A program made the position numbers and the translations under genes. Positions 25,571-44,891 of a stretch of 64,000 nt of DNA are shown here, piece after piece. The notes under the pieces were generated by a model. That model saw only the letters and a program-made list of their open reading frames with translations. It was not told the DNA's origin and ran no database searches. Numbering within the stretch: position 1 is the first letter of the stretch; each line of letters opens with the position of its first letter. The DNA is from Bacteroidota bacterium (lineage in GTDB: Bacteria > Bacteroidota > Bacteroidia > Palsa-948): the NCBI GenBank assembly GCA_016213435.1, contig JACRAL010000028.1:2196-66195 (forward strand), written 5' to 3'.

Positions 25571-26995
25571 TTATCTCCATCCGCCTCCCAATGCTTTGTA
25601 TAGGTTTACAGTCGCTATGAGTTTATTTTTACTTGCGTCTATGAGTTCAAGTTGCGTTTCCAATGAATTTTGCTGTGCCAATAAAACTTCCAAATAAGTT
25701 GCCCTTCCTGTTTTATATAATTCCTTAGAACTTTCAACTGAGAGCATCAATACACTACTTTGTTCTTTTTTCAGAGCATTTATTTCCTGAAAATATTTAA
25801 TGTTTGAAAGTCCATTTACTACTTCTGCATATCCATTCAAAATAGTTTCCTGATAATAATACATTGCAGTTAACTGATTTGCTTTTGCAGTATTGAATTG
25901 TGCTTTCAAAGCATTTCTGTTAATCAGTGGTGCAACCAAATTACCTAAAGCTGAATACGCTAATGATGTTGGAGTCATAAACAAAAACTGTGGATTGAAT
26001 GCTTGAAAACCATACCCTGCTGTGATATTCAGATTAGGAAAAAATGCTGCTTTTGCAGATTTTAAATCGAATTTACTTGCTTGAACTTGAAACTCTGCCT
26101 CGCGAATATCAGGTCGGTTTCTTAATAATTGAGAAGGAATGCCCGCAGTAAACTGTTGGGTAATCTCATTAAACAGAACTTCTTTAGTTCGTTGTATTGG
26201 TTGCGGAAACCGACCTAACAGAAAATTAATTCTATTTTCTAACTCTATTATTTGTCTTAATGTTTCCTTCTCTAATGCTTGTGAATTTATCAGCGCTGCC
26301 TTAAACTGTTGAACTGCTATTTCAGTTGTTTTTCCTGTTTCCATTTGAAGTTTTACAACATCCAAAGCATCTTCTTGACCTTGTATCGTTTGCCGAACAA
26401 TTTCTAATTCATTATCCAACCCCAATAACTCATAATAGGAAATAGCCACATCAGCCACCAAATTTGAAATGACAAAATTTCTTCCTTCTATACTTGATAG
26501 GTATTGTGCAATAGCAGATTTACGTTGGTTCCTCAACTTTCCCCAAATGTCAATTTCCCAACTGGCTTGTAAGCCCAAATAATAATCTTGCAGAGGATTG
26601 GGAACAATTTTACCGGGTTCATATTCAGTTGTTGTGTTGCCTGCATAGTCGGGAGTATATTTTGCATATTTATCAACTCCAACGGAACCGTTAATGCCAA
26701 CCATAGGTAGTAGTTGCCCATTAGCGAATTTTATTCCTGAACGGGCAATTTCAATTCGCTGTAAAGCTATTTGTAAATCAATATTGTTTACAAGAGCTGT
26801 GTCTATCAGTTTCACCAAAATCGTATCAGCAAAATATTTTCGCCAATTGATATTCGCTATATTGTTAGAATCATTTTGATTTTGGAAACTTGTCGGGACA
26901 TCTTTTTTTGAAATTGACAAGTTTGTATCAAGTGTTTTGCAACCGCTTACGATTAGCAACAAAAACGCGATGTATATGATATTTCTTTTCCTCAT
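25571..26995 (-). CDS. RND efflux outer-membrane factor lipoprotein (TolC/NodT family)
   Basis: Lipobox 'VSGC' and two OEP repeats; 474 aa. Confidence 0.85.
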   Translation of the reverse strand: MRKRNIIYIAFLLLIVSGCKTLDTNLSISKKDVPTSFQNQNDSNNIANINWRKYFADTILVKLIDTALVNNIDLQIALQRIEIARSGIKFANGQLLPMVGINGSVGVDKYAKYTPDYAGNTTTEYEPGKIVPNPLQDYYLGLQASWEIDIWGKLRNQRKSAIAQYLSSIEGRNFVISNLVADVAISYYELLGLDNELEIVRQTIQGQEDALDVVKLQMETGKTTEIAVQQFKAALINSQALEKETLRQIIELENRINFLLGRFPQPIQRTKEVLFNEITQQFTAGIPSQLLRNRPDIREAEFQVQASKFDLKSAKAAFFPNLNITAGYGFQAFNPQFLFMTPTSLAYSALGNLVAPLINRNALKAQFNTAKANQLTAMYYYQETILNGYAEVVNGLSNIKYFQEINALKKEQSSVLMLSVESSKELYKTGRATYLEVLLAQQNSLETQLELIDASKNKLIATVNLYKALGGGWR

Positions 26996-27007
26996 TGTAA
27001 TTTGTTC

Positions 27008-30000
27008 CTAAATGATTTCTGAAAATGGTTTTTCTTCTTTTCTGTTTCTGCTGAATTTTTCTGCAAGTGTGGCGAACACTACATACAAGCCCGGAATAAT
27101 AATTACTCCAAACACGGTTCCAAATAACATACCGCCTGCTGCTGCTGTTCCGATGGTGCTATTGCCAACTGCACCCGCACCGCTTGCAAACATTAGCGGA
27201 AGTAATCCCGCAATGAAAGCAAATGATGTCATTAAGATTGGGCGCAAACGGACTTTTGCTCCTTCAATGGCGGCTTGTAATGGTGTTTTCCCTTGACTGT
27301 GTCGTTGTGCCGCAAACTCCACGATAAGAATTGCATTTTTACCTAACAATCCAATAAGCATAATCATCGCTATTTGTGCGTAAATATTATTTTCTAAACC
27401 AAATGCACTCAACAATAAAAACGCTCCAAAAATTCCTGTTGGTAATGAAAGTATAACTGGCATTGGCAATAAAAAACTTTCGTATTGTGCCGCTAAAAGT
27501 AAATACACAAACAGCAAACAAATTATGAAAATGATAATTGCTTCGTTGCCACTGTTTGCTTCATCTAATGAAATTCCCAACCAGTCCACATCATAACCTC
27601 TCGGCAATTTTTCTTTTGCTGTTTGCTTAATGATTTTTAAAACTTCTCCACTGCTTACACCTTGTTTTCCTTCACCATTCATTTGAGCACAGAGGTATAA
27701 GTTGTAGCGGTCAATTTGGTCAACTCCATACGATTTTTCAACGGTCATAAAAGCCGACATAGGAACCATTTCGCCTTTGTCATTCTTTACATACAATTTC
27801 AATAAATCTTCGGGTAATGCCCTATATTGTGGCAATGCCTGAACCATTACTTTATACATTTGTCCGAAACGGATAAAATTAGTTGCATAATCGCTTCCTA
27901 AAAGTGTTTGCAAAGAACTCATTGCGTTGTTTACCGTTACACCTTTTTGAGCCGCCTTGTCCATATCAACTCGTAAAGTGTATTGCGGAAAACTTGCATT
28001 GAAAAAACTGTAAGCACTGGCAATTTTCGGGTTCGCTTTTAAGTCACTAATGAATTGTGTTACTACACTTTCCATTTTTTTTTGGTCGCCACTTCCCGTT
28101 TTATCTAATACAACCATTTCAAAACCACTTGCGTTTCCGTAACCGGGAACAGCAGGCGGTGGAAAAAATTCAATATCAGCGTCTTTGATGTATTTGGTTT
28201 TTTCTTCCAAAGTTTTAATCACATCGTCCACAGAAACCTTTCGTTCACTCCACGGTTTTAAATTAATCAGTGCCGTTCCGTAAATTGAACCTGTTCCATC
28301 AGAAAGAATATTTGTTCCTGCAAGTGTTGATACACTTTGTATTCCTTCTAAATTTTGTGCTTCTTTCTGAATAGCGTTTACTACTTCTTTTGTTCGTTCC
28401 AAAGTCGCACCTTGTGGAGTTATTACGCTTGCATAAAAAGTTCCCTGGTCTTCGTTTGGAATAAAACCTGAAGGCAGAATTCTTCCCAAAATCCCTGTGC
28501 CGATTAAGAATAAAAGCAATACACCAAAAGTGATAAATCTGCGATTAAGAATTTTTTCCAACAGCTTTTTATAGCGTTCTTCCAAGCCATTATACCAATT
28601 ATTAAAACCGTCAAGAAGTTTTGAAAACCAATTTTTCTTTTTCGTTACTCCATAATGATTTTTTAAAATAATCGCACACAAAGCAGGTGTTAAAGTGAGT
28701 GCCACAACACCTGACAGCACAATGGCAATAGCCATTGTCAAAGAAAATTGTCGGTAAAAAATGCCCGAAGGACCCGACATAAAAGCAACCGGAATAAATA
28801 CGGCAGACATTACCAAAGTAATAGCGATGATTGCACCGCTGATTTCTTTCATGGCTTGTTCGGTTGCTTTTTTCGCACCAATTTTTGAATGTTCCATTTT
28901 CGCATGAACCGCTTCAACAACCACAATGGCATTGTCCACCACAATTCCAATTGCCAGTACCAATGCAAAAAGTGTAATGAGGTTTAATGAAAATCCTAAA
29001 AACTGCATAAAGAAGAAAGTCCCAATGAGCGAAACAGGAACTGCTATTGCAGGAATTAAAGTGGAACGCCAATCCTGCAAAAAAATAAATACCACAAGCG
29101 CAACCAAAAGAAACGCTTCCAAAAATGTTTTGATTACTTCATGCACCGAAGCATCTAAAAACTGACTTACATCATAACTCAATTCGTAGTCCATTCCCTT
29201 TAGAAAACTTCTTTCTTTTAATTCTTCCATTTTCGCTTTAACGGCTGCAATTACTTCACTTGCATTACTGCCCGGTGATTGTTTGAGCATAATAGCAGCA
29301 CAGGTTTTACCATTGAATTTTGCTTCCACGTCAAAATAGGTTGTGCCAAATTCTACCTCTGCCACATCTTTAATTCGCAAAATTTTTCCTGTGGTTTCCG
29401 ATTTAAGCGGAATGTTTTCGTATTGCTCTTTGGTGTTGAATTTCCCCGTGTATTTTACTGTGTATTGTAATGGCTGTCCCTGACCTTTTCTTTCAGAACT
29501 CTCACCGATTTTTCCGGGTGCTGCTTCCACATTTTGTTCATCTAATGCAGTTAATACATCTTCGGTTGAAATGTTGTAAGTAAGCATCTTGTCGGGCTTC
29601 AACCAAATACGCATAGCGTATTCCTTCACTCCCATAATATCAATAAAACCAACTCCTTTAATTCTTTTCAGTTCTGCAAGAACATTCAGGTCAGTGAAAT
29701 TGTAAAGGAATTTTTCGTCAAGCGTTGTGTCTGAACTGTAAATATTCAGATAGGTGAGCATAGCGTTGTTTACTTTGGTTATTTTAATTCCACTCTTTAC
29801 CAAATCAGGGGGAAGCTGTGGAATTACTTCAGCAACACGATTCTGAACACTCATGGCAGCTACATCGGGATTTGTTCCAACCTCAAAAATTATTTTGATT
29901 AACCCTACACCGTCATTTCCTGCGTCACTAAAAATATATTTTGCACCTGCCACACCGTTGATTGCTTTTTCAAGAGGCACAATGGCTGTTTTCACAACTG

Positions 30001-30166
30001 TTTCGGCATTTCCACCGGGATATTCAACCGTTACATTTACTTCCGGTGGGGTTATACTTGGAAATTGTTCTACAGGCAAACGGAACAATGTTAATATTCC
30101 AAGTAAAAATATTATCAGCGATATTACTATCGCCATAATTGGGCGATGAATTATTTTTCCTGCCAT
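27008..30166 (-). CDS. RND-family multidrug efflux permease (AcrB/HAE1-like)
   Basis: 1052 aa with 12 transmembrane helices and large periplasmic loops in an AcrB-type conservation pattern. Confidence 0.9.
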   Translation of the reverse strand: MAGKIIHRPIMAIVISLIIFLLGILTLFRLPVEQFPSITPPEVNVTVEYPGGNAETVVKTAIVPLEKAINGVAGAKYIFSDAGNDGVGLIKIIFEVGTNPDVAAMSVQNRVAEVIPQLPPDLVKSGIKITKVNNAMLTYLNIYSSDTTLDEKFLYNFTDLNVLAELKRIKGVGFIDIMGVKEYAMRIWLKPDKMLTYNISTEDVLTALDEQNVEAAPGKIGESSERKGQGQPLQYTVKYTGKFNTKEQYENIPLKSETTGKILRIKDVAEVEFGTTYFDVEAKFNGKTCAAIMLKQSPGSNASEVIAAVKAKMEELKERSFLKGMDYELSYDVSQFLDASVHEVIKTFLEAFLLVALVVFIFLQDWRSTLIPAIAVPVSLIGTFFFMQFLGFSLNLITLFALVLAIGIVVDNAIVVVEAVHAKMEHSKIGAKKATEQAMKEISGAIIAITLVMSAVFIPVAFMSGPSGIFYRQFSLTMAIAIVLSGVVALTLTPALCAIILKNHYGVTKKKNWFSKLLDGFNNWYNGLEERYKKLLEKILNRRFITFGVLLLFLIGTGILGRILPSGFIPNEDQGTFYASVITPQGATLERTKEVVNAIQKEAQNLEGIQSVSTLAGTNILSDGTGSIYGTALINLKPWSERKVSVDDVIKTLEEKTKYIKDADIEFFPPPAVPGYGNASGFEMVVLDKTGSGDQKKMESVVTQFISDLKANPKIASAYSFFNASFPQYTLRVDMDKAAQKGVTVNNAMSSLQTLLGSDYATNFIRFGQMYKVMVQALPQYRALPEDLLKLYVKNDKGEMVPMSAFMTVEKSYGVDQIDRYNLYLCAQMNGEGKQGVSSGEVLKIIKQTAKEKLPRGYDVDWLGISLDEANSGNEAIIIFIICLLFVYLLLAAQYESFLLPMPVILSLPTGIFGAFLLLSAFGLENNIYAQIAMIMLIGLLGKNAILIVEFAAQRHSQGKTPLQAAIEGAKVRLRPILMTSFAFIAGLLPLMFASGAGAVGNSTIGTAAAGGMLFGTVFGVIIIPGLYVVFATLAEKFSRNRKEEKPFSEII

Positions 30167-30177
30167 GTTTTCAATGT

Positions 30178-31329
30178 TTAAGGGTTAATAATTTGAGAAA
30201 ACATAATCGTTTCAGGCATTATATTATCGCCATCTTTTACTTTTTGTACGCCCTCATAAATAATCCTTTCATTTGGTGAAAGCCCTGAACTGATAACATA
30301 CAATTGTAGTAAACGAAGTGAAGGGGTAACTTTGCGTTGCTGCACCTTACCCTCTTTATCCACAACAAAAACATAAATATTTTCCTGAACCTCAAAAGTT
30401 GATTTCTGAGGAATAAGCATTGCGTTTTTCAATTCTGTTTTCACCAATATTTTACCACTGCTTCCGTGTTTCAAAACTTGTTCGGGATTCGGAAATTTCG
30501 CTCTGAAAGCAATGTTGCCTGTACTTTTGTCAAATTCGCTTTCGGTAGTTTCAATCAAGCCTTTGTGATTATATAAACTTCCGTTTGCCAATACCAACGA
30601 AACTTCTTTTGATTTTCCTTGCTGTTTTGAAAGAGTATAATCTAAATAATCTTTTTCAGAAACATTGAAGTATGCAAATACTTCTTTGTTATTGGAAATA
30701 ACGGTGAGCAAAGTTCCCTCTTCAACCAAACTGCCTGTTTTGTTTGGAATGCGGTTTATGATGCCGTCAAATGGGGCTTTAATTTCTGTAAAAGAAAGAT
30801 TGAGGATGGCTTGCGCCTCATCTGATTGGGCTTCTTCTACCTTTGCCTTTGCAGCATCCACTTTCGTTTCCAACATATCAAGTTCGGTTTTAGAAACAAT
30901 TTTCTTGTCCAGCAGTTTTTTTGTGTTCTCCAAATCAATTTCCGTTGATTTTAAATCAGCCAAAGCACTTTTCAACCCGGCTTTTGCCTTTAGCAAATCT
31001 TGTTCGTATTGCTTGCTGCTAATTGTGAATAGCGTTTGCCCTTGTTTCACTATTTGCCCTTCGTCCACGTAAATATTTTCTATGAATCCTTTAATACGTG
31101 TTCTTATCTCTACGTTTTGGAGCGCATTTATTTCAGCGACATATTCGTTTTGATAAGTGGTATCCATGATGAGAGGACTAATTACCTGAAACTTTTCAGG
31201 CGTTTCCTTTTTACTATCTGTTGAGCAAGCTGATAGAAATATCATAGCAGAAATGCTCAATTGCAATGCGATTTTCCTCATTGAATTGAAAGAATTTAAA
31301 ATGAAAAATGAATGATGGGCAAAACCCAA
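30178..31329 (-). CDS. RND efflux membrane fusion protein (AcrA/HlyD family)
   Basis: Lipoprotein signal, coiled-coil hairpin and beta-barrel domains; first gene of the MFP-RND-OMF operon. Confidence 0.85.
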   Translation of the reverse strand: MGFAHHSFFILNSFNSMRKIALQLSISAMIFLSACSTDSKKETPEKFQVISPLIMDTTYQNEYVAEINALQNVEIRTRIKGFIENIYVDEGQIVKQGQTLFTISSKQYEQDLLKAKAGLKSALADLKSTEIDLENTKKLLDKKIVSKTELDMLETKVDAAKAKVEEAQSDEAQAILNLSFTEIKAPFDGIINRIPNKTGSLVEEGTLLTVISNNKEVFAYFNVSEKDYLDYTLSKQQGKSKEVSLVLANGSLYNHKGLIETTESEFDKSTGNIAFRAKFPNPEQVLKHGSSGKILVKTELKNAMLIPQKSTFEVQENIYVFVVDKEGKVQQRKVTPSLRLLQLYVISSGLSPNERIIYEGVQKVKDGDNIMPETIMFSQIINP

Positions 31330-31969: not shown

Positions 31970-33016
31970 ATGACAGCATCCGAAATACAAATTAATCCCA
32001 AAATGGTAGCCCTTGGCCGTGAATCACGCGGTCTCTCTCAAACAGACCTTTCAGGCAGGTTAAATACCACTCAGGGGTTCATCAGCCGAGTTGAAACGGA
32101 TATGAAGTCCATGTCAAAAGACACATTAGAAAGGTTGAGCAAGATTCTGAAATATCCCATTGATTTTTTCTATCAGGAAGGCGAAGCGTTTCTGCCCATG
32201 AGTTTGAACTTTCGCAAGCGCGACCATGTGAACGCAAAAGTATTGATGCCGTTTGAAGCGCAATGCAATTTATACCGCCTCAATATTGAAATGCTTTCAC
32301 AAAAATTAAAATTCCCTGCGCTGAATATTCCTGACTTGGATGTAAAAAAAATTGGCTCGGAAGAACAAGTTGCAAAACAGCTTCGCAAGTTTTGGAAAAT
32401 TCCAAAAGGACAAATTGAAAATTTCACTGAACTTTTAGAAGCAAATGGAATCATCATTATTTCATTTGACTTCGGAACAGAACGAATTGATAGCAGAACA
32501 ATTCTTACAAAGGACAAGCATCCAATTATAGTTGTAAATAAAAATCACCTTGCGGACAGACAGCGTTTCAGTTTGGCGCACGAGCTTGGGCATTTAGTGA
32601 TGCACTCACATACGCTTCCTTCGCATGACAGAGATATTTCACACGAGGCAAATATGTTTGCCGCAGGTTTCCTTTTGCCTGAAAGCGAAGTGAGAAAAGA
32701 TTTTGAGAAAGGAATTACCATTGCTTTGCTTGCTGAACTAAAAAAGAAATGGAAAGTTTCAATGATTGCGCTTTTATACCGCGCATTTGACTTGGGATTT
32801 TTTACTGAGAATCAAAAAAAATATATGCTTGCTCAGTTCAATCAAATGAATATACGCAGGCGCGAGCCGATTGAATTGGATTTTCCGAAAGAGAAACCGC
32901 ATTTGCTCCGCGACCTGATTACAAAATATAAAAACGCTCATAAATTTTCAGCAAAAGAGTTAGCAGCGAGCTTTCATCTCGAACTGGAGGAGTTTATGAG
33001 CAAATATGGAGAGTAA
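31970..33016 (+). CDS. XRE-family HTH regulator fused to ImmA/IrrE-family zinc metallopeptidase
   Basis: N-terminal HTH_XRE ('LSQTDLSGRLNTTQGFISRVE'); a 'HELGHLVMH' HEXXH motif sits in a COG2856-like domain. Confidence 0.8.
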   Translation: MTASEIQINPKMVALGRESRGLSQTDLSGRLNTTQGFISRVETDMKSMSKDTLERLSKILKYPIDFFYQEGEAFLPMSLNFRKRDHVNAKVLMPFEAQCNLYRLNIEMLSQKLKFPALNIPDLDVKKIGSEEQVAKQLRKFWKIPKGQIENFTELLEANGIIIISFDFGTERIDSRTILTKDKHPIIVVNKNHLADRQRFSLAHELGHLVMHSHTLPSHDRDISHEANMFAAGFLLPESEVRKDFEKGITIALLAELKKKWKVSMIALLYRAFDLGFFTENQKKYMLAQFNQMNIRRREPIELDFPKEKPHLLRDLITKYKNAHKFSAKELAASFHLELEEFMSKYGE

Positions 33017-33154
33017 AATATCGTGAAATGATTCCGGGACGATTGAAAATATTTTGCATTGACTGTGGAGAAGCATGGAAAAGCATGGAGAAGCGCGGGG
33101 AGATTCCGGGAAGGATTCTGATTAAAACATTTATTTACCGATAAAACATTTGCT

Positions 33155-33730
33155 ATGAAAAAACAAAAGAAAAATTCCTCAGAAATTTATTTAACACGAG
33201 AGATTATGATGAGGGAAATAATCTCAAAACTACTCGATACAGATTTACTTTCAGGAGAAGTAGAAAACAAGGTACTGAAAGAATACCTGATTTATGGAAA
33301 AACATACAAAGAAATCGCGCCTCTGTTCAAGCTCACGCATTTCAGGGTAAAACAGATAGTGAATAATGCTTTTGCAATAATAAAATCGAGATTATCTCGC
33401 CATGAAAATATTTTTTCCACGCTGAAAAAACAGCAGACTGAAATAGAAGAATTAAAAAGCAGCATTGCTGAAAAAGAGGAAACGGAAAATCAATTCAATT
33501 CTCTGCCGGAAGAAACGCAGAAACTTTTATCAGAAAAAATAGAAACGCTCCCTTTGGATGTGCGAATCATAAATTCCTGTATTAAGAACCATGATATTTT
33601 CTTTTTGCGGGATTTGGTAAAACTGACCAGACGCAAATTTGCCGGGATGCGAAACATAGGAAAGAAATCCATAAATGAAATGGATGAATTCCTAAACTCT
33701 AAAAGATTGACATGGGAAATGAATGTTTAA
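33155..33730 (+). CDS. Hypothetical protein with sigma-70 region-4-like HTH and RNA-polymerase alpha-CTD-like helix-hairpin-helix domain
   Basis: 'LKEYLIYGKTYKEIAPLFKLTHFRVKQIVNNA' resembles sigma region 4. The C-terminal 'LPLDVRIINSCIKNHDIFFLRDLVKLTRRKFAGMRNIGKKSINEMDEFL' matches the RpoA alpha-CTD consensus. Confidence 0.5.
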   Translation: MKKQKKNSSEIYLTREIMMREIISKLLDTDLLSGEVENKVLKEYLIYGKTYKEIAPLFKLTHFRVKQIVNNAFAIIKSRLSRHENIFSTLKKQQTEIEELKSSIAEKEETENQFNSLPEETQKLLSEKIETLPLDVRIINSCIKNHDIFFLRDLVKLTRRKFAGMRNIGKKSINEMDEFLNSKRLTWEMNV

Positions 33731-33780: not shown

Positions 33781-34017
33781 ATGACAACAGTACGAAAACT
33801 TGAGTTGAAGCCGTATTCAGTAACAGACCTTGCTAAGATTTACGGAGTATGCAACCGCACCTTCAAAAAATGGGTGAAAGACATAAAGGAAGTGGGTCCG
33901 AAGAAGGGGCGATATTATTCCATTCCTCAAGTAAAAATTATTTTTGAAAACATGAAAGTCCCTACTCAAATCATTATTGAGACGGGGACACAGAAATCGG
34001 AATTGGATTTAGTTTAA
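33781..34017 (+). CDS. Small HTH-like protein, paralog 1 (DUF4248-like; Xis/MerR-type HTH?)
   Basis: 78 aa with 'LELKPYSVTDLAKIYGVCNRTFKKWVK...GRYYSIPQVKIIFE', shared with two downstream paralogs. Confidence 0.55.
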   Translation: MTTVRKLELKPYSVTDLAKIYGVCNRTFKKWVKDIKEVGPKKGRYYSIPQVKIIFENMKVPTQIIIETGTQKSELDLV

Positions 34018-34065: not shown

Positions 34066-34092
34066 AAGCAGAGAGGCTTCTCTGCTTTTTTA
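34066..34092 (+). terminator. Rho-independent terminator (AAGCAGAGAGGCTTCTCTGCTTTTTT)
   Basis: 9-bp perfect stem plus T6; downstream of paralog 1. Confidence 0.6.
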
Positions 34093-34305
34093 TTACCCGA
34101 ATTTTTCTTCAAAAAAATTTCTTGCCGTAAAACCGGACAAGAACGGAAATTGTTTTGCACGAAGTGGAATAATTCGGCACGAACGGACACAAACTTACAT
34201 AAACCTACATAAACGGAAACTGCCCGGAATCCGACACGCGACCTTTACAAAAAATCAGGGAGAAATCCCTAATGCAAAGGGAAACTAATCATAAAATAAA
34301 TTAAA

Positions 34306-35076
34306 ATGGAAAACACAAATCAACACAGGGCTGAAAAACAGAACATGATTCTGAGACCCTGCACAGTAAAAGAACTCTCGGCATTTTACCGGGTTTCAAA
34401 AACCACAATTAGAAAATGGCTTGAACGCTACAAGGAAGAAATTGGTGAGCGCACCGGACATTTCTATATGATTGAACAAGTAAAAATCATTTTTGAAAAA
34501 TTCGGTGTTCCGTCAGGAAAACAAATAGTATTTCCAAAACCCGAAACTTTTACCGATGAAGTTTCTGAATTTACAGAGGCAGCATGGGATTTTGCTTGCG
34601 CGTTATTATGGAAAGACAAAATCTTCTGCACGGAAGAAATTGCACTAAGCAAAAATCACCTGCGGGAATTTTTTACCATTCCCAACAAGAGCGGAAATCC
34701 AATCTCTCTGTCCAAACGCCTTTCCGTATTCTGCCAGCGAATCACGCTCACGCGAATGTTCCTTGATTATAAACCTCAGCGTTTCATTCCCTCCCCCGCA
34801 CTTTGGCTTGACCGAAATTACAAATACGGATTTGCCGGAACGCTCAAATGGTTCAAATGGATTAGCGAAGAAAGAAAAGAGAATCCCTATGTGCGCGAAG
34901 AACTCCGTGTGCTTGCCGATTTATACTGCGAGTATATCAAAACAAAATCTGCTGCCGAAGTAATGAATAAGGCAGGAGATTATTTCCTGAAGAAAAATTT
35001 CATGCACCTATTCAGAATTTTTTCCGATTGCATTTCTCATATCGGCAACAAAACTAACTATCAACTCGCTGCATAA
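34306..35076 (+). CDS. HTH-like paralog 2 with ~170-aa C-terminal extension
   Basis: N-terminus 'ILRPCTVKELSAFYRVSKTTIRKWLERYKEEIGERTGHFYMIEQVKIIFEKFGVP' is paralogous to 33781 and 35119. Confidence 0.55.
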   Translation: MENTNQHRAEKQNMILRPCTVKELSAFYRVSKTTIRKWLERYKEEIGERTGHFYMIEQVKIIFEKFGVPSGKQIVFPKPETFTDEVSEFTEAAWDFACALLWKDKIFCTEEIALSKNHLREFFTIPNKSGNPISLSKRLSVFCQRITLTRMFLDYKPQRFIPSPALWLDRNYKYGFAGTLKWFKWISEERKENPYVREELRVLADLYCEYIKTKSAAEVMNKAGDYFLKKNFMHLFRIFSDCISHIGNKTNYQLAA

Positions 35077-35118: not shown

Positions 35119-35373
35119 TTGACTATGAAAAACGAACAAGCAAACGAAAAAAAGTCAACAGTAAGGTTGGAACTTAAACCGTATACACCCTTGCAACTAT
35201 CGAAAATTTACGGAGTGAGCAAAGTAACATTCCTTAAATGGATAAAGGAGCTAAAGCAAGAACTCGGAAAGCGCAACGGACATTATTATTCCATTCCGCA
35301 AGTGAAAATAATCTTTTCAGAATTCCTGTTGCCTTCTTACATCGAAATTGAAACGGACATAATCGTAAAATGA
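35119..35373 (+). CDS. Small HTH-like protein, paralog 3
   Basis: 'LELKPYTPLQLSKIYGVSKVTFLKWIKELKQELGKRNGHYYSIPQVKIIFSEF'. Confidence 0.55.
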   Translation: MTMKNEQANEKKSTVRLELKPYTPLQLSKIYGVSKVTFLKWIKELKQELGKRNGHYYSIPQVKIIFSEFLLPSYIEIETDIIVK

Positions 35374-35476
35374 TTTACACAATCGTAAAGAGTTTGGCAA
35401 AATCGTTTAGGGTCGTTTAAAATCGTAAACCCCTCCGAAAATACAGTCAGACCTTTGTAAAAAATCCGGAAGGAAT

Positions 35477-35671
35477 ATGCAACAAGATACACATACATCA
35501 AACAGCACTTCTTCGGTGGTTCTCACCGGAGCCATCCTGTTCGCAAACCTTGACGCTTCAGGGCTTGCAGAATACGCGGTGAAAGCCGCCATCGGTGGAG
35601 CGATATGGCTTGTGTTCAAAATCACGAGCGATTATGTAAGCGAAAGAATTAAAAACAAAAAAGAGAAATGA
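35477..35671 (+). CDS. Small membrane protein
   Basis: 64 aa with one hydrophobic helix; overlaps the next ORF by 4 nt. Confidence 0.35.
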   Translation: MQQDTHTSNSTSSVVLTGAILFANLDASGLAEYAVKAAIGGAIWLVFKITSDYVSERIKNKKEK

Positions 35672-36147
35672 GCCTAAAAAAAATACTTGTCGGTTCTGCC
35701 ATTGGCGGAGGAATAATCGCAGGGGTTACATATTTCTTTCGATTAAAAAGAACGAGCGTGGAGCTTGAATCTTATGCGAAGGTGAACATTTTCAAACTTG
35801 ATTTAAGCGGATTGGTTTTGCAGGTGGACGTGCAACTGAAAAATCCAACTCGCACAAAATTCAAAATAAAGTTCCCCTTCATCAAACTCATTTATAAAGA
35901 TGCGACCATCGGAAGCTCTCAGGTTGTGGACAAGGACATCACGATTCCCGCCTACGGAGAAGCAGTCGCAGAAAAAATAATGATAACGATTCCACCGCGA
36001 AATATTTTTTCGGTGAGCGCAGGGCTGATAAAATCCCTTTTGGCAGGTGAACAAGTGAAGCTGAATTCAAAAACAATCTCAACGATTGATTTGGGCTGGA
36101 AAAAACTCCCCTACGAAAAAACAGAAGAAGTAACCCTGAAAAACTAA
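35668..36147 (+). CDS. TM-anchored LEA_2/WHy-like (Hin1-type) beta-sandwich protein
   Basis: N-terminal transmembrane helix, then a 'VDVQLKNPTRTKFKIKFPFIKLIYKDATIGSSQV...IPAYGE' pattern typical of LEA14/WHy domains. Confidence 0.4.
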   Translation: MSLKKILVGSAIGGGIIAGVTYFFRLKRTSVELESYAKVNIFKLDLSGLVLQVDVQLKNPTRTKFKIKFPFIKLIYKDATIGSSQVVDKDITIPAYGEAVAEKIMITIPPRNIFSVSAGLIKSLLAGEQVKLNSKTISTIDLGWKKLPYEKTEEVTLKN

Positions 36148-37655
36148 TGGAAGCATTAAAACATAGAAAAATAAAAAGCGGAGCGCAGTACGAACACCTG
36201 TTTCCTTCAGCGAACCTGAAAGACGAAACTGTTAAGAAGGGCGCTTCTGTTTACGATACGGTGAAGTTCATTCCAAAAGTAGTAAGGGAAACTCTGCCGC
36301 AGACCGAAGGAATTTCAAAAATGCTTCGCGGAAATACCTTGAGCGAAACCTGCAAGAATATTTGGGATTTTGTTTACCATCATATCAACTACAACAAAGA
36401 CGAAGATGGAACAGAGCAAATCCGTTCACCTGCCCGGACGTGGCATGACCGTTCGCGTGGAGTGGACTGCGATTGCTACACGGTATTCATCAGCAGCATT
36501 CTTTCAAATCTGAAAATACCGCACACGCTTCGCATAGCAAAATACCGGAAAGATTATTTCCAGCACATCTATCCGATAGTCCACAAAACCAACGGCAAGT
36601 ACATCACGATTGATTGCGTGGTGGACTATTTCAACTACGAAGAACCATATACAGAAATAAAAGACAAAACAATGGATTTACAATACCTAAGCGGAATAGA
36701 AAATTCCGAATCAGAATTCGGAAACTCCGAAGATGAATCTCTCGGAAAAAAGAAAGGCAAAGGAAAGTTGAAAGACCTTCTGAAGAAAGGACTTCACATC
36801 GCCAACCGCGCGAATCCTGCCACGCTTCTTCTTCGCAACGGGCTTCTCGCCTCCATGAAGCTCAATATTATGAAAGTCGGGCAACGGCTGAAGTATGCTT
36901 ACATGAGCGATGAGCAGGCAAAGCAGAAGGGAGTTGATACGGCAAAATTCCAACACCTGAAAACAATCAAAGACAAACTCGAAAAGATTTTTTACGGAGC
37001 GGGAGGAAAACCTGAAAACCTGAAGAAAGCAATTCTAACAGGAAAGGGAAATAAAAAAGGCAAGCACGATGTAGACGGGCTTGGAGATTTTGAATATGAC
37101 ACGAATCTCGGAGACATGAACGAAGCAACTCCGCTTCCTCAACTGCTAGGAGATGAAATGTATCGTTCTGAAAATGCAGAAACGCTCGGTGCGCTCGGAG
37201 AACCAGTAACGGCAGCATCCATCACGGCAGCCACAGGCGCGATTGCGAGCATCGCGGCTCTTTTGAAAAAGATTGGAAATATTTTTCCGAAGAATGATAA
37301 AGAAGACGAAAGTGCAAAAGATTTTCAAACTACGGATAAGGACACAGACCCAAATAATGTTCAAAAGGAAATCGAGCAAAACAAAGATGAAATAGTAAAG
37401 ATGGACGCATCCACAAAAAAAGTGGACACATCAACCGATGATTCATCGGGAAGCGGAGATGATTCCACCAAGCAGGGATTTTGGGACAAGAATAAAAAAT
37501 GGATAAAGCCAACTGCAATCGGAGTAACAGGTTTGGGCTTGCTTTATCTCGGCTATCGCGCAATCACAGGACACAAAGAAGAAAACCATCCAAAGCAGTT
37601 ATCAGGAACGAAAAATAAAAAGCATCCCAAAAAAGAACCTGTGGCTTTGATGTAA
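36147..37655 (+). CDS. Transglutaminase-like cysteine-protease-domain protein with long disordered K/D/G-rich region and C-terminal TM helix
   Basis: TGase-core triad pattern: 'RSRGVDCDCYTVF' (Cys), 'YFQHIYPIV' (His), 'YITIDCV' (Asp). The central 250 aa are low-complexity, and there is a C-terminal hydrophobic helix. Confidence 0.55.
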   Translation: MEALKHRKIKSGAQYEHLFPSANLKDETVKKGASVYDTVKFIPKVVRETLPQTEGISKMLRGNTLSETCKNIWDFVYHHINYNKDEDGTEQIRSPARTWHDRSRGVDCDCYTVFISSILSNLKIPHTLRIAKYRKDYFQHIYPIVHKTNGKYITIDCVVDYFNYEEPYTEIKDKTMDLQYLSGIENSESEFGNSEDESLGKKKGKGKLKDLLKKGLHIANRANPATLLLRNGLLASMKLNIMKVGQRLKYAYMSDEQAKQKGVDTAKFQHLKTIKDKLEKIFYGAGGKPENLKKAILTGKGNKKGKHDVDGLGDFEYDTNLGDMNEATPLPQLLGDEMYRSENAETLGALGEPVTAASITAATGAIASIAALLKKIGNIFPKNDKEDESAKDFQTTDKDTDPNNVQKEIEQNKDEIVKMDASTKKVDTSTDDSSGSGDDSTKQGFWDKNKKWIKPTAIGVTGLGLLYLGYRAITGHKEENHPKQLSGTKNKKHPKKEPVALM

Positions 37656-37695
37656 AAAGAAAAAACAATTCACTAACAATTAAAAACAAAAAACA

Positions 37696-38331
37696 ATGAG
37701 CAAAAATTCTTACGAAAGAGCCGCACAGAAAAAATCCCTGCTTGGTGAAATCACCAAAGACCTGGAGACAAAAGGGGATTTGAAAAATACTGCGATAGAG
37801 ACATTGAAAGATGTCGTGATAGGAGTAGTCGCAGGAGGCGTAGCCGGTTCCGCCATCGGGCGCGCTTCACTTCTGATTGGAGCGGCAGTAACAGGTCTTG
37901 GACATTATTACAAAAGCCGTCTCGCTTCCATTTTCGGAGTGGGCATGATGGCAGCGAACGGTTTTCAGCAAACCGACACGCAGATGAAAGGAACTCCGAA
38001 AGACGGATTGGAAGGCGCACTCGAAGGAGCTAAAGAGCGCGTGATGAATTTCAAAGACACTTTCGGTCAGAAACTTTTCCTCGACAAAGTTTTGAAAAGC
38101 AAAGAGCAAAAGAAAGAGGAAGAATCCACCAAAGGAGTTGGCGATGTTCAGTATTTCACTTATCCCGAAAACAAAGAACTCGGAGAAGGCAAGGAACAAC
38201 TTGACCTCACCGCGCTTGACAAACTGGAAAAGCAAGTTGCCGAAAGCGGAGCATCTTTTTCACAGAAAGGAACAGGAAATCTTCCCGCGAACGAAATGGG
38301 AGAGATTGACCCAAGCGAACAAAATTTTTAA
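37696..38331 (+). CDS. Hypothetical protein with glycine-zipper TM segment
   Basis: 'VVIGVVAGGVAGSAIGRASLLIGAAVTGLG' and an acidic C-terminus. Confidence 0.4.
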   Translation: MSKNSYERAAQKKSLLGEITKDLETKGDLKNTAIETLKDVVIGVVAGGVAGSAIGRASLLIGAAVTGLGHYYKSRLASIFGVGMMAANGFQQTDTQMKGTPKDGLEGALEGAKERVMNFKDTFGQKLFLDKVLKSKEQKKEEESTKGVGDVQYFTYPENKELGEGKEQLDLTALDKLEKQVAESGASFSQKGTGNLPANEMGEIDPSEQNF

Positions 38332-38378
38332 AACGAAAATCAAAAACAATTATCACTAACAATTAAAACCCAAAAACC

Positions 38379-39107
38379 ATGTTCGGAGATTTAAATGCAA
38401 CAGAAGAGTACAACAACGCGGGAGCGTTGCTTGGACTGGACGGAGACAACGAGGAACTCGTAGGCGATGTGCTTGGAGTTCTCAAACAAATGAACCCATT
38501 AAAAAGGTGGCGCACGATGAACCGTCTCACCGCGCCCGCGCCTGCAAGCAAAGGAAGCCGAGCTGAAATGGAAAAACATTTCCACGAACTTCCCAAGCAC
38601 ATTCAGGAAGGGTTGAAAAAAGGAGAACTGCGCTTGGCGGACACCGTGATTTATTCCATCAAGCCCGCAAATTCCAAAACCATCAAGCTGTTTGAAACGC
38701 AGGATGTGAGGGAAATCGGATTGAGGAATATTTCCAACGCCAAACTTCCAAAGAACCAAGCTCTGCTTGTGAGCGGAATTATTTTGCTCGCAGGAGTTTC
38801 AGAAAACCAAACTCCCGATGCGGTGATGGCAACTGCTTTTGCAGGAATTGAAACTGTTCCCGCTTTCAGCACAGGAGAGTTTGATTTGAAAGCGAACAAA
38901 AAGCAAATAGTTCCTGAAACAAGCAACAATGTTTTCAAAACCGCTGGCTTCACAATGGTTCCGGCAGGGTATTACAAACTCGCCAACCCTCGCCTCATCC
39001 ACGATGACATCCTGATTGAGCTGACCATTTCGCTCGGCACGATGCAGGGCGTGAACCCCAACGCGCAGATCTGGGCAGGGCTTCACGGAACCATCACCAC
39101 TCCGTAA
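38379..39107 (+). CDS. Hypothetical protein (candidate virion/structural)
   Basis: 242-aa ORF in a co-directional block; no motif recognised. Confidence 0.4.
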   Translation: MFGDLNATEEYNNAGALLGLDGDNEELVGDVLGVLKQMNPLKRWRTMNRLTAPAPASKGSRAEMEKHFHELPKHIQEGLKKGELRLADTVIYSIKPANSKTIKLFETQDVREIGLRNISNAKLPKNQALLVSGIILLAGVSENQTPDAVMATAFAGIETVPAFSTGEFDLKANKKQIVPETSNNVFKTAGFTMVPAGYYKLANPRLIHDDILIELTISLGTMQGVNPNAQIWAGLHGTITTP

Positions 39108-39218
39108 AGCGGTGAATTGGCAAAAAGCAGGTGGCAGAGCGTGCAAATGTAAAATGCAGCCTGCCTCTGCTACGCCAATTTTTTTAAAACGAATGACAAA
39201 CGATTAACAACAAACGCG

Positions 39219-39605
39219 ATGATAAAAACAGAATACAAACGATTTGACCTCAAGGTAACGCAGGCGAATAAAACCGTCTCGCAATCTTTTGAGCTTGACA
39301 AAAATTTTGTCGCGGTGAAAGGAATGATGCTCACTTCTGACAGGCGCGATTTGCTTTTCTTTCGCGGGTCTCAGCGAATTGAAATCAACAAGGACGAATT
39401 ATTTCCATCTGAATACCTGAGTGAAATGCTGATGTCAGGAATAAATGTTCCGATAAACGAGCGGTATCACAATTTAGGAAGCGTTGACACAGGAAATAAA
39501 ATCGTGAAGATGGAATTCACAGACAGCGATGCCTTCGGAACTGCTTTCGCACCCTACACAGTTTACCTCTTTTTAAAATGCGATAAAAAAGATTCAAATG
39601 ATTAA
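39219..39605 (+). CDS. Hypothetical protein
   Basis: 128 aa; overlaps the next gene by 8 nt. Confidence 0.4.
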   Translation: MIKTEYKRFDLKVTQANKTVSQSFELDKNFVAVKGMMLTSDRRDLLFFRGSQRIEINKDELFPSEYLSEMLMSGINVPINERYHNLGSVDTGNKIVKMEFTDSDAFGTAFAPYTVYLFLKCDKKDSND

Positions 39606-40224
39606 GCGAAGAATCATAGCGACAAAAATCAGCATCACCAAACAGGGAGAAATAAAATTCTTTCAGGTGAAAGTTCCATTCGATGCGAAAGTCATTATCG
39701 GGATTGAAACAGCCATGCGCCTGAAAACATTTCGGGTTTTTCCAAGCCAACCGATTTTAGTTCCATTTGATAATCCCTACGGAAATATTGTTGCCTTCAA
39801 CGGAACAGGAAATCCAACTGGTCAGGCAATAAATGGTTCCGGGATTTTTCCGATAAATAATTTTTCACCCTCTCCGATTGATTCACCGATTGGCGCAACA
39901 AGAAATTCTCTTGTCGGTGAATTGAAATTGCAAAGCAGCGATGATTCAAATATTTTTTACGCAACGAATATTTCAGACCCGTCCGTGAAAGAAGGATTGG
40001 ACAAAGTTCCTTCGGTGAATTTCATGATTGAAAATGTGTGGACGCACGGCTACAAACGCCAATTAGAGGAAGTTCTTGTGGATGCAAACACAACGGTTAT
40101 CGCTGGGCTATACAAAGACAGGCTCGGAGAAATGCTGAAGGCGGATGTTTCCTACGATGTCTTCCTATATATATGGTACAAGTTTGAAAAACCCATTGAC
40201 AATGACAATCAACCTTGCTCTTGA
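39598..40224 (+). CDS. Hypothetical protein
   Basis: 208 aa, with a beta-rich G/P/N-rich middle region. Confidence 0.4.
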   Translation: MIKRRIIATKISITKQGEIKFFQVKVPFDAKVIIGIETAMRLKTFRVFPSQPILVPFDNPYGNIVAFNGTGNPTGQAINGSGIFPINNFSPSPIDSPIGATRNSLVGELKLQSSDDSNIFYATNISDPSVKEGLDKVPSVNFMIENVWTHGYKRQLEEVLVDANTTVIAGLYKDRLGEMLKADVSYDVFLYIWYKFEKPIDNDNQPCS

Positions 40225-40522
40225 ATACATCCCGCGAAGAATGGAAGAACTGGGTTTCGGAAACGATTACTACCTGCGCTTCCGGCACTTTGTTCTGCAA
40301 CCCTCAGAACAGTTGGATGTCCCCGCATTCAACCAGTTCTTCATCCTCGTGGAAGAAGCGCAGGACGTGAGCGTGAAATCAGAATTCGGAATTTTTGATT
40401 TGAGTTTGAAGAACGCGAATGAAATGTTATACGAACATCAGGGGCAAATCACATTACAAAACTACGCTTCGGCAGTAAATCATATCCGGTTTATTCAGGT
40501 AATCCCGAAGCATAAAATTTAA
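40202..40522 (+). CDS. Hypothetical protein
   Basis: Internal ATG at 40202 chosen to minimise overlap with the previous gene. Confidence 0.35.
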   Translation: MTINLALEYIPRRMEELGFGNDYYLRFRHFVLQPSEQLDVPAFNQFFILVEEAQDVSVKSEFGIFDLSLKNANEMLYEHQGQITLQNYASAVNHIRFIQVIPKHKI

Positions 40523-40527
40523 AAACA

Positions 40528-40779: not shown

Positions 40780-40827
40780 ATCACATACGATTAATAAACG
40801 TTATTCCAAAGCATAAAACGAAATAAA

Positions 40828-41631: not shown

Positions 41632-41635
41632 CAAA

Positions 41636-42183: not shown

Positions 42184-42184
42184 A

Positions 42185-42881: not shown

Positions 42882-43775
42882 ATGGAAAAGGAAAAACCAA
42901 ACAAGAAGAAAAAATTCCTTCTCATAGGATTAGGAGTTGCGGCAACGGGATTACTCAGCTATTTCGGTTGGGAATATTATCAGAAGAAGAAAAAAGAAAA
43001 AGAAGGTAATGCTGATGATTCATCATCCGACACCGATACTCAGCCAGTCATTCCGCAGAAAAGCACATTCGCACCGAAATTTTTTACGCAACCGCAAACA
43101 CGGAACGATGATTTTCCATTGAAGAAAGGAAGCAAGGGAGCAAAAGTGAAATCAGTACAGGATGCTCTTATTGCAAAAAATGGAAAAGGAATTCTTCCGC
43201 GTTACGGAGCCGATGGAGATTTCGGAAGCGAAATGGTTACCGCTCTGAAGAAACTCAACCTGCCCGACACCATTGATGAAACTACTTACAATGTAATCGT
43301 GCAGTCATCCTCATCTTCTTTTGATGCAGGCGCACTTGCCAAAGCTCTCTACAAAGATGCCGTGAACAAAAACATCAATGGAGTTATCAATTCCCTGAAG
43401 AAGATGAGTACGAAAGACGATTACACCGCAGTCAGCAACGAATTCAAAAAACTCAGCCTGCGCGGAGTAAGCCAAACGCTTGTGAACGGATTGCTCGGCA
43501 GTTTCCCGGACGAAAATCAGAAACAGCAAATCCGTTTGGAGTTTTCACGGATGGGTTTGAAGTACGATGGAAAAAAATGGTCGCTTTCAGGATTGGATGG
43601 ATTCAAAGTAATCACTACTGAGGCTACAACCGTTTGGAGAACTCCGAATGAAGGCGCGAAAGTTCCCGCGAAAATGATTTTAGGAACTGAAATAGCTACG
43701 AGTAAAGGATTCACCCTTTTTGAAAACAACGGAAGAAAATTCATAGTCAAAACATCAACGATAAAATATTTATAA
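42882..43775 (+). CDS. Membrane-anchored peptidoglycan-binding (PG_binding_1) domain protein
   Basis: N-terminal transmembrane helix. 'LKKGSKGAKVKSVQDALIAKNGKGILPRYGADGDFGSEMVTALKKLNLPDT' fits the PG_binding_1 consensus. The C-terminus has a weak annexin-like repeat. Confidence 0.55.
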   Translation: MEKEKPNKKKKFLLIGLGVAATGLLSYFGWEYYQKKKKEKEGNADDSSSDTDTQPVIPQKSTFAPKFFTQPQTRNDDFPLKKGSKGAKVKSVQDALIAKNGKGILPRYGADGDFGSEMVTALKKLNLPDTIDETTYNVIVQSSSSSFDAGALAKALYKDAVNKNINGVINSLKKMSTKDDYTAVSNEFKKLSLRGVSQTLVNGLLGSFPDENQKQQIRLEFSRMGLKYDGKKWSLSGLDGFKVITTEATTVWRTPNEGAKVPAKMILGTEIATSKGFTLFENNGRKFIVKTSTIKYL

Positions 43776-43788
43776 AAAACAAAACACA

Positions 43789-44226
43789 ATGAGAATAATA
43801 AATTTCATCGTGGTGCATTGCACCGCCACACCGCCAACGGCAACAGTTGAGGCGATAAAAAAATACTGGAAGGAAGTAAAAAAATGGGGCGACACGCCCG
43901 GCTATCACTACTTGATTCACCGTGATGGAGAAATCGAGCAACTGCTTGACGAAAGCAGAATGAGCTACGGAGCATACGGACACAATCCCGAATGCGTACA
44001 TATTTCTTACATCGGGGGAATTGACAAAGACGGAAAACCGATTGACAACCGGACTTCCGCGCAGAAACATTCCATGTTCGATAAGCTCATGGAGCTTTCT
44101 GAAAAATATCCGCAGGCAAAAATTCTCGGACACAGGGATTTTCCAAATGTGGCGAAAGCGTGTCCGAGTTTTGATGTGAGAGAATGGCTACGCAATTACG
44201 AACCCGATTTAAAAGGCGCAGCATGA
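43789..44226 (+). CDS. N-acetylmuramoyl-L-alanine amidase (Amidase_2 / PGRP / T7-lysozyme family)
   Basis: 'IVVHCTATPP', 'GYHYLIHRDGEIEQL', 'HISYIGG' and 'CPSFD'; 145 aa, like phage endolysins. Confidence 0.85.
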   Translation: MRIINFIVVHCTATPPTATVEAIKKYWKEVKKWGDTPGYHYLIHRDGEIEQLLDESRMSYGAYGHNPECVHISYIGGIDKDGKPIDNRTSAQKHSMFDKLMELSEKYPQAKILGHRDFPNVAKACPSFDVREWLRNYEPDLKGAA

Positions 44227-44891
44227 TTTTTCCGAGAGTAAAATCCATACTTCGCAGAAACGGTTATGTGTTGCACACGCGCCCTTACGAACTGAACATC
44301 GTGGGAGTTCGCACACGAAGCACAATTCCTAATCGCTTTGATGATGAGATACACGTTTTCTACAAATCAAAACCAACGAAATGGGAGTATCACATTTTTA
44401 AGGCGACAACGGACCCCGGGACATTTTGGTTGGAGAATCCGATGCAACCACAGGGGACAGCCATACTTGCACAAGGGCAATATGTAAATGCCTACCAAAT
44501 CGGAATGCACTTGGGAAAATACAAAGCCCTCGTGCAAGTGGCTCCCGTTGCTATCATGCGCGACTATAACCGCAATGCGAAGTTGGATTTTCTCAACGGA
44601 AAAAAAGAAGAAGGAATTTACGGAATCAACATTCACAGGGCAATGGCACAGGGGAAAACAAAATACATAGACAAGTTTTCCGCAGGATGCCAGGTCTTTC
44701 AAAGCGCAGAGGACTTTGAACATTTTATGGAGATGTGTGATAAGCATAGCAAGTTGTACGGAAACCGATTCACTTACACCTTGCTTGACTTTCGCGCCCT
44801 GCGGAGAGAATCCATCAAAAGAATTGTAATCGGAACATTAACTCTCGGTTTGGGATTAATCGGATATATCAACTACGACACCAATGAATGA
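44223..44891 (+). CDS. Hypothetical protein (possible second cell-wall-active domain)
   Basis: Start overlaps the amidase stop (ATGA); a conserved Cys in 'FSAGCQVF'; no confident family. Confidence 0.4.
   Translation: MIFPRVKSILRRNGYVLHTRPYELNIVGVRTRSTIPNRFDDEIHVFYKSKPTKWEYHIFKATTDPGTFWLENPMQPQGTAILAQGQYVNAYQIGMHLGKYKALVQVAPVAIMRDYNRNAKLDFLNGKKEEGIYGINIHRAMAQGKTKYIDKFSAGCQVFQSAEDFEHFMEMCDKHSKLYGNRFTYTLLDFRALRRESIKRIVIGTLTLGLGLIGYINYDTNE

Follow-up and report, generated by a model that had tools for sequence, protein, structure and literature searches.

That the C-terminal domain of the alpha subunit RpoA (alpha-CTD; PF03118) and region 4 of sigma-70 (PF04545) occupy neighbouring places on promoter DNA is textbook knowledge, and the two have been described almost exclusively as components of RNA polymerase. 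On mobile elements, an alpha-CTD is carried by phage proteins such as A0A6J5M7I6 and A0A2P1JY10 of Rhodococcus phage Finch ('RNA polymerase, alpha subunit, C-terminal'), which are known by annotation only. A different kind of described system is represented by ImmR/ImmA of ICEBs1 and IrrE/DdrO of Deinococcus, in which an M78 protease cleaves a helix-turn-helix (HTH) repressor. In the present analysis we describe a protein of 191 amino acids, here called the target, in which a sigma region 4-like HTH and an alpha-CTD-like domain are joined in one small protein. It is encoded by a stretch of 64,000 nucleotides from a Bacteroidota bacterium (assembly GCA_016213435.1, contig JACRAL010000028.1, positions 2,196 to 66,195 of the forward strand), referred to throughout as the window, its gene being the second within an integrated ~25-kb element (Table 1).

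The C-terminal domain of the target resembles the alpha-CTD of RpoA in its fold, in its DNA-contact residues, and in the R-N-x-G-K-K-S signature and the ...G-M-D/N-V end of Bacteroidota RpoA, but it comes without the RpoA N-terminal assembly domain, is not acidic at the positions of E. coli residues 259 and 261, and is preceded in the same chain by an HTH and a predicted coiled coil; in the family to which the target belongs, furthermore, the equivalent of L314 is tryptophan in 60 of 64 members. The N-terminal domain shares with sigma-70 region 4 the four-helix HTH and the region 4.2 pattern L-T-x-x-R-x-K-Q-I, but its recognition helix extends into the coiled coil and sigma regions 1-3 are absent. 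While the phage proteins named above are matched through one domain only, RefSeq entry WP_124785686.1 from the Chryseobacterium taklimakanense conjugative plasmid NZ_CP034172.1 ('DNA-directed RNA polymerase subunit alpha C-terminal domain-containing protein') contains both domains (Sigma70_r4, 30.0 bits; RNA_pol_A_CTD, 56.3 bits) and can be aligned with the target over residues 40-187 of the latter; the plasmid protein differs in being a 294-aa long form with an N-terminal extension, only 29% identity and no M78 neighbour. As in ImmR/ImmA, an M78 gene with a HELGH (HEXXH) motif adjoins, at the border of a mobile element, the gene of an HTH regulator, but here the protease itself carries an XRE-type HTH, and the regulator beside it is the sigma-4/alpha-CTD protein instead of an XRE repressor.

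On the evidence set out below, we lean, without great assurance, towards reading the target as a dimeric transcription regulator of the element that combines two different DNA-binding modules and acts in an early unit with the XRE-M78 switch. Full-text literature searches returned no functional, experimental or comparative description of the sigma-4 plus alpha-CTD architecture, an earlier description being possible. The domain combination is already visible in automatic annotation (precomputed Pfam matches, the RefSeq name above and a JGI name), the target itself being listed as 'hypothetical', and we rate the group as a family of regulators, so far uncharacterised, whose constituent domains are known. 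In its present state the result is a solid annotation upgrade of a 'hypothetical protein' together with a testable hypothesis, and not a demonstrated mechanism.

Domain architecture of the target

The first-pass annotation of the window placed the open reading frame, and within it the peptide LPLDVRIINSCIKNHDIFFLRDLVKLTRRKFAGMRNIGKKSINEMDEFL (target residues 132-180), exactly, and took the C-terminus for an alpha-CTD. This assignment is far beyond chance. The Pfam profile RNA_pol_A_CTD (PF03118) matches target residues 120-181 over profile positions 6-66/67, with 45.6 bits against a gathering cutoff of 23.8 (E=5.7e-12), and 46 distinct RpoA sequences of the Protein Data Bank (PDB) match at E<=10, the best of them being 8dkc_A (3.9e-7), which itself carries the R-N-x-G-K-K-S signature. 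An identical copy of the target at NCBI (P0001) bears the name 'MAG: hypothetical protein HY840_02750 [Bacteroidetes bacterium]', and the start MKK is kept in homologues of 57-74% identity.

The same annotation had likened the N-terminal part to a sigma region 4 or LuxR-type HTH, and of this the first half stands at the level of the family. With the target alone, Sigma70_r4 scores 20.6 bits over residues 37-74, under its cutoff of 24.1 (E=3.1e-4), which is suggestive; KORA (PF16509) reaches E=0.11 and GerE (PF00196) gives no match. Compared against the PDB, a profile of 38 N-terminal domains of the family matches region 4 of WhiG/FliA-type sigma factors and of SigA at 2-3e-6 (6pfj, 2.3e-6; SigA 7ckq_F, 3.1e-6), with weaker matches to GerE (1.2e-4) and KorA (5e-4). 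Among 64 aligned short members of the family, RNA_pol_A_CTD is found in 62, Sigma70_r4 is found individually in 13 at E<=1e-3 (best 6e-10), KORA in two and GerE in one. Nine of ten longer relatives that were scanned match Sigma70_r4, seven of the ten over the curated cutoff (25.6-50.9 bits), and eight of the ten contain an extra HTH_17 module. On this family-level evidence, the N-terminus of the target is best regarded as a divergent sigma region 4.

An AlphaFold (AF2) model built from seven sequences had a pLDDT of 70, and one built from 64 homologues a pLDDT of 89.1 with a pTM of 0.60. In the AF2 model, the first three helices of the HTH (Table 1) are followed by one unbroken helix, residues 62-116 (pLDDT >90), and by a compact domain, residues 119-182 (pLDDT >90). 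Foldseek superposes this C-terminal domain on the E. coli alpha-CTD 3n97_B with a TM score of 0.83 and an rmsd of 1.3 Å over 69 residues, 3n97 being the top structural match, and on 8y5t_A2 with a TM score of 0.91, while the first, seven-sequence model matched sigma-A region 4 (1ku7_A) with a TM score of 0.63. Across the 64 members, the hydrophobic residues of the segment 80-116 recur with a period of 3.5 (power 26.5, versus 10.0 at 3.6 and ~1 elsewhere), which is the hallmark of a coiled coil, here conserved and some five heptads or ~35 residues long. Since a periodicity of 3.5 residues signals a coiled coil, the target is likely to dimerise through this segment.

The presence of two polymerase-derived domains raises the question of whether the target is itself a polymerase subunit, that is, a genuine alternative sigma factor or alternative alpha subunit. 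This we consider highly improbable. A relative (P0079) does carry the JGI name 'RNA polymerase sigma factor (sigma-70 family)', and the NCBIfam sigma models for ECF and FliA factors match the target weakly, but these matches are limited to the last ~60 model positions. Sigma70_r2 gives nothing in the target even at E<=10 in Pfam, where only ~80 residues precede the coiled coil, and sigma region 2 is found in none of the 64 short members or the ten longer relatives scanned. Because sigma regions 1-3 are absent from the target, it cannot be a sigma factor. As for an alpha subunit, no Pfam match to the RpoA N-terminal assembly domain (RNA_pol_L / RNA_pol_A_bac) is present in the target, and the NCBIfam rpoA equivalog models align only from about position 190 to their end, with 45-49 bits versus cutoffs of 228-523.

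A family of sigma region 4 plus alpha-CTD proteins

A word-indexed search returned only eight relatives of the target, whose alignment was used for an exhaustive HMMER search; this gave 2027 proteins at E<=1e-3, 138 of them at E<=1e-10. When 158 retrieved proteins were classified with separate profiles for sigma-4 and alpha-CTD, the commonest architecture was the short form with one domain of each kind (177-235 aa, n=72), followed by a long form of 270-330 aa (n=29), proteins with several alpha-CTDs and no HTH (n=26), short proteins with the alpha-CTD only (n=12) and proteins combining sigma-4 with several alpha-CTDs (n=8). The sigma-4 plus alpha-CTD combination is represented by at least 109 clusters at 50% identity, and is distributed over Bacteroidota plasmids, a phage-like contig, integrated elements and chromosomes. 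The breadth of this distribution, chiefly among Bacteroidota and in many cases on mobile elements, points to an unstudied class of regulators, and is what would be expected of a general regulator architecture. The combination is thus less unusual than the first-pass annotation supposed, alpha-CTD proteins having already been annotated in phages and on a plasmid.

Species-representative genomes scanned with an alignment of the family (A4) gave nothing, and the subfamily was not found with the same alignment among the IMG/VR viral contigs. One family member is carried by an uncultured contig labelled 'Bacteriophage sp.'; together with that of the Chryseobacterium plasmid, a set of small mobile-element-like genes and one long form, which stands alone among ileS, uvrB and ruvA, it belongs to the more distant members, which lack an M78 partner. 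A Rosetta-stone link between the N-terminal HTH_17 module of the long form and the small HTH proteins encoded near the target was considered and rejected (BLASTP E=23).

The alpha-CTD also turns up in further architectures that were not anticipated. Secreted-looking proteins contain up to 11 tandem repeats of it, and proteins P0010 (1031 aa), P0016 (570 aa) and P0073 (652 aa) are among the odd architectures. Treponema has 90-aa proteins that consist of an alpha-CTD standing alone, and a Paceibacterota protein of 484 aa contains both an HTH and an alpha-CTD; the loci of unexpected architecture are L055, L066, L070, L078 and L088.

Conservation of the DNA-contact surfaces

For a comparison of alpha-CTD surfaces, 64 domains of the family were set against 51 Bacteroidota-type RpoA CTDs taken from a genome scan with the pattern RN[CIF]GKKS, which had found 78 loci, almost all of them genuine rpoA. 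In E. coli RpoA we take R265, N268, N294, G296, K298 and S299 to be the DNA contacts, D259 and E261 to be contacts to sigma region 4, and the surface around V287 to be the contact to CAP. The target has all the equivalents of the DNA-contact residues, with R265, N268, N294, G296, K297, K298 and S299 corresponding to R137, N140, N167, G169, K170, K171 and S172, respectively. These positions, each invariant in the 51 RpoA domains, are the best-conserved columns of the family: glycine is kept at 296 in 64 of the 64 members, arginine at 265 in 63, asparagine at 294 in 54 and at 268 in 46, and K297, K298 and S299 in 40, 38 and 38 members, a further 14 having threonine at 299. The positions taken to contact sigma region 4 behave differently. 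Both are acidic in 51/51 RpoA domains; position 259 is acidic in 39/64 family members and is T131 in the target, and position 261 is aspartate in 11/64, being mostly proline, glycine or asparagine, and is P133 in the target. The '287' patch for activator contact is likewise not conserved in the family.

The simplest reading of this pattern is that the alpha-CTD module has been retained for DNA binding and not for imitating the protein contacts of alpha, and the binding of A/T-rich DNA resembling UP elements, which the first-pass annotation had put forward, would be compatible with a domain in which every DNA-contact residue is present. Because the family has the signature R-N-x-G-K-K-S, its alpha-CTD appears to have arisen from a copy of the 3' end of a Bacteroidota rpoA. 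An arginine at the position of E. coli P293 was tried as a signature of the family and rejected, as it is a trait of Bacteroidota RpoA (seen at the rpoA loci of the pattern scan).

In the HTH, the conserved positions are K49, [TS]50, F51, E53, L60, T61, R64, K66, Q67 and I68, which give the family signature K-[TS]-F-x-E-[IL]...L-T-x-x-R-x-K-Q-I-F, and the variable ones are 62, 63 and 65. Positions 62 and 63, histidine and phenylalanine in the target, align with what we take to be the residues of E. coli sigma-70 that contact bases of the -35 element, R584 and E585. Variation at 62, 63 and 65 is expected if different elements read different sequences.

The conservation of these surfaces bears directly on the suggestion of the first-pass annotation that the target mimics, or competes with, the host alpha-CTD in order to redirect RNA polymerase. 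In its full form, a takeover of this kind would have the alpha-CTD copy compete for UP elements or activators, or the region 4 copy occupy the beta-flap or the -33/-35 position, or both, with the result that host transcription is diverted to the element. The two domains do derive from polymerase parts that lie side by side on promoter DNA (as in 3n97, the top structural match), the DNA-contact residues are retained, the gene resides on a mobile element with a lysis cassette, and the fast divergence of the target described below could reflect an arms race. However, residues that are invariantly acidic in Bacteroidota RpoA for contact with sigma-4 are threonine and proline in the target, the 287 patch is not conserved, and the domains are parted by the ~35-residue coiled coil instead of being adjacent; a sequence-specific HTH of its own and a coiled coil resemble the layout of an ordinary dimeric regulator. 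The element, moreover, looks temperate (XRE-M78 switch, integrase), so that a global shut-off is not expected, and long-form relatives standing alone among housekeeping genes indicate that the architecture is not restricted to takeover contexts. Finally, the promoter-like boxes of the element resemble ordinary Bacteroidota -7 boxes (judged by what we take to be their consensus), and a new promoter specificity is not obviously needed. Mimicry finds no specific support, and we regard takeover as a decidedly unlikely account of the target; were the protein to touch RNA polymerase after all, it would represent a new takeover mechanism.

The M78 partner and divergence of the target gene

Directly upstream of the target homologue, and on the same strand, a gene for an XRE-M78 protein is found in the related loci L002, L006, L007, L008 and L089, and as a cut open reading frame in L003; the pairing persists down to ~37-40% identity of the target. 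In L001 (1995-3701), the XRE-M78 gene is separated from the target homologue by three genes, of which one encodes a further M78 peptidase that lacks an XRE domain. Synteny extends to the downstream genes in L004 and L006. When the window is compared with L006, the XRE-M78 proteins are 75% identical and the products of the downstream genes 63-80% identical, in comparison with 39% for the target, which is the fastest-diverging of the syntenic genes. Taken together with intergenic repeats that differ from locus to locus (see below), this is the pattern expected of a DNA-binding protein that determines specificity.

The strict adjacency of the target to an M78 peptidase gene within the subfamily also invites a comparison with ImmR, according to which the target would be an immunity repressor that silences the element and is cleaved by the neighbouring protease on induction, for example in the linker before the alpha-CTD. 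Fast divergence is typical of immunity determinants, the predicted dimeric HTH architecture would suit such a repressor, and in L089 the pair persists beside chromosomal genes. Set against this, the protease gene has an XRE HTH of its own, the usual type of repressor in such modules; both genes, and indeed the whole element, are co-directional, unlike typical divergent repressor/lytic layouts; most family members have no M78 neighbour; and a cleavage site cannot be inferred. We consider the role of protease-sensitive repressor unlikely.

The DNA directly to the left of the XRE-M78 gene varies among the related loci. In L006 (1556-8764, on a contig of GCA_974442725.1) it encodes a DUF4007 protein, a PAPS-reductase-like protein, GmrSD_N and a protein kinase, a cluster that looks like defence-system cargo; in L002 the same place is occupied by transposases, and in L089 by an MmeI-type methylase fragment.

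Intergenic repeats and candidate sites

Three intergenic regions around and downstream of the target gene contain repeats or conserved boxes (Table 1). A core of the form GGAA(A)TTGTTTTG(C)AC is shared by the window (34143-34160), L004 (~2392), L006 (~12110) and L008 (~12712), and a related copy is found at 33046-33063 of the window. The GGAA(A)TTGTTTTG core may serve as an operator for the XRE-M78 protein, which is well conserved, or may be a promoter box. Around it lie repeats that are specific to each element: AATCGTAAA in four to five copies and GAACGGA in three in the window, three copies of ACGATGC in L006, three of CCCGAAYT in L008, and four of CATCGGAAA in L001. Repeats that differ in this way would fit a fast-evolving, sequence-specific regulator.

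A 27-nt repeat (34240-34266 and 35450-35476) was entertained as an 'A-tract plus box' site and rejected, related loci favouring ordinary -7-type promoter boxes (CCTTTG). Searches of the window with degenerate motifs were not specific: the 27-nt repeat gave seven hits versus 2.25 expected, five of the seven with three mismatches, and GATTCCGGGA gave 26 versus 8.9 expected, scattered across the window.

Proposed role of the target

In the regulator reading that we prefer, the protein would dimerise through its coiled coil, and its HTH would read an element-specific sequence in the major groove, with specificity conferred through positions 62, 63 and 65. The alpha-CTD module would add binding to the minor groove of A/T-rich DNA, and thereby either raise affinity or, because the coiled coil keeps the alpha-CTD away from the HTH, bridge to a second DNA segment. 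An early unit made up of XRE-M78, the target and the 78-aa HTH protein is suggested, because a terminator-like hairpin follows these genes, and the 78-aa HTH gene is probably co-transcribed with that of the target. Under control of the XRE-M78 switch, this unit would set the expression of the downstream operons, that is, of the conserved genes and the lysis cassette, and we lean towards the target being an activator rather than a repressor of them.

Several considerations weigh against this interpretation. We infer both dimerisation and DNA binding from sequence comparison and a predicted structure; the equivalents of K297, K298 and S299 are present in ~60% of the members, and DNA binding by the alpha-CTD module may therefore not be universal. 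The motif searches yielded no binding site for the target, the listed repeats being candidates only, and those repeats could instead belong to the three nearby HTH proteins and the XRE domain. In addition, a region 4 fold can bind the beta-flap and an alpha-CTD fold can bind regulators, so that a direct action on RNA polymerase is conceivable.

A bolder extension of the regulator reading, which we put forward as doubtful, is that proteins with sigma-4 plus alpha-CTD constitute a transcription factor class of their own, put together from the upstream-promoter readers of RNA polymerase. A dimer would then read a '-35/-33-like box plus A/T tract' in trans and either pre-mark the promoters of the element for the host polymerase or occlude them, and Bacteroidota mobile elements would use such proteins widely as a specificity switch under an M78 protease. 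Promoter recognition in Bacteroidota differs from the E. coli model. Should the alpha-CTD module prove to be a portable reader of the A/T minor groove, it would be a natural instance of a domain put to new use, which synthetic regulators could take up, and would offer a handle on how such elements are switched on.

Organisation of the integrated element

As the first-pass annotation had it, the target is encoded on an island: the ~25-kb element is a co-directional block inserted between chromosomal genes for RND efflux on the left (25571-31329) and a tRNA-Ser(GGA) gene and a gene for a tetratricopeptide repeat (TPR) protein on the right.

Table 1. Features of the target gene and of the element that carries it (window coordinates).
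Feature	Coordinates	Strand	Basis or remarks
XRE-HTH + M78 metallopeptidase (ImmA/IrrE-like), first gene of the element	31970..33016	+	HTH_3 36.6 bits, Peptidase_M78 80.6 bits, HELGH motif
Intergenic region upstream of the target	33017..33154	+	direct repeats GATTCCGGGA x2, GGAGAAGCATGGA / AAAGCATGGAGAAGC, conserved AATATTTTGCATTGAC core; conserved in L001, L002, L003
Target gene, 191 aa, ATG start	33155..33730	+	sigma region 4-like HTH, predicted coiled coil, alpha-CTD-like domain
Sigma region 4-type HTH, ~aa 8-80	33176..33394	+	helices 8-28, 35-45, 51-57, recognition helix from 62
Predicted coiled-coil linker, ~aa 80-116	33392..33502	+	runs on from the recognition helix in the AF2 model
Alpha-CTD-like double helix-hairpin-helix domain, aa 119-191	33509..33727	+	PF03118 and Foldseek 3n97_B
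78-aa HTH protein, first of three paralogous small HTH modules	33781..34017	+	weak HTH_17/HTH_28 matches
Terminator-like hairpin and T-run	34066..34087	+	9-bp stem; consensus match only
Regulatory intergenic region	34100..34305	+	conserved core GGAAATTGTTTTGCAC, GAACGGA x3, ACATAAAC x2, -7-like box GACCTTTAC; core again in L004, L006, L008
Two more genes with the paralogous HTH module, 256 aa and 84 aa	34306..35373	+	repeat families D1, D2
Regulatory intergenic region before the conserved downstream operon	35340..35476	+	AATCGTAAA / AATCGTTTA x4-5, -7-like box GACCTTTG; other repeats at the corresponding site in L006 (ACGATGC x3) and L008 (CCCGAAYT x3)
Lysis-type cassette (endolysin-like, Amidase_2, phrog_3000/endolysin-like)	42882..44891	+	Amidase_2 59.7 bits; PHROG amidase 4.5e-48 and PHROG endolysin families
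Large serine recombinase, right end of the element	54788..56512	+	Resolvase 90.1 bits, Recombinase 47.7 bits
tRNA-Ser(GGA), right junction	56350..56441	-	ARAGORN; Rfam tRNA 53 bits

Searches with Pfam, PHROGs and NCBIfam found no capsid, terminase, portal or type IV secretion family in the element, and no direct repeat of >=12 nt common to its two ends was found. The element is probably, and with moderate confidence, an integrated, virus-like temperate element; the label 'virus-like temperate' is given because of the lysis cassette, an ATPase gene situated between a 2128-aa open reading frame and the recombinase, the switch and the integrase, and because of these alone.

Three copies of the small HTH module stand in a row downstream of the target (33781-34017; the N-terminal ~75 aa of 34306-35076; 35119-35373), as DNA repeats of 61-72% identity, and the same multiplicity is seen in L004, L006 and L008. 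They are followed on the forward strand (35477-42001) by about ten conserved genes, of 64, 159, 502, 211, 242, 128, 208, 125, 267 and 121 aa, which match no family in Pfam, PHROG or NCBIfam. Those up to the 125-aa gene are syntenic in L006/L007, with 51-89% identity, and the set may comprise unrecognised structural genes of a virus-like element. Gaps between the open reading frames of >=100 aa (40523-40827, 42002-42184, 44892-45122 and 45810-45935) read as coding, as with ATGAAAACAGAAGAACAAAG at 40528, and probably hold small genes.

At the right end, the open reading frame of the recombinase traverses the whole of a genuine tRNA-Ser(GGA) gene on the opposite strand, its last ~70 codons being antisense tRNA and flank. 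This probably places the junction within the 3' end of the recombinase frame (~56.30-56.35 kb), with the stop codon supplied by host DNA. The 2128-aa open reading frame mentioned above (46558-52944, forward strand) combines a RadC-like JAB domain, an N6/N4 DNA methylase, MutS domain I (MutS_I), an AAA_34/ResIII helicase and a Strawberry-notch C-terminal domain, and giant multi-domain proteins of this kind are seen on conjugative and other mobile elements.

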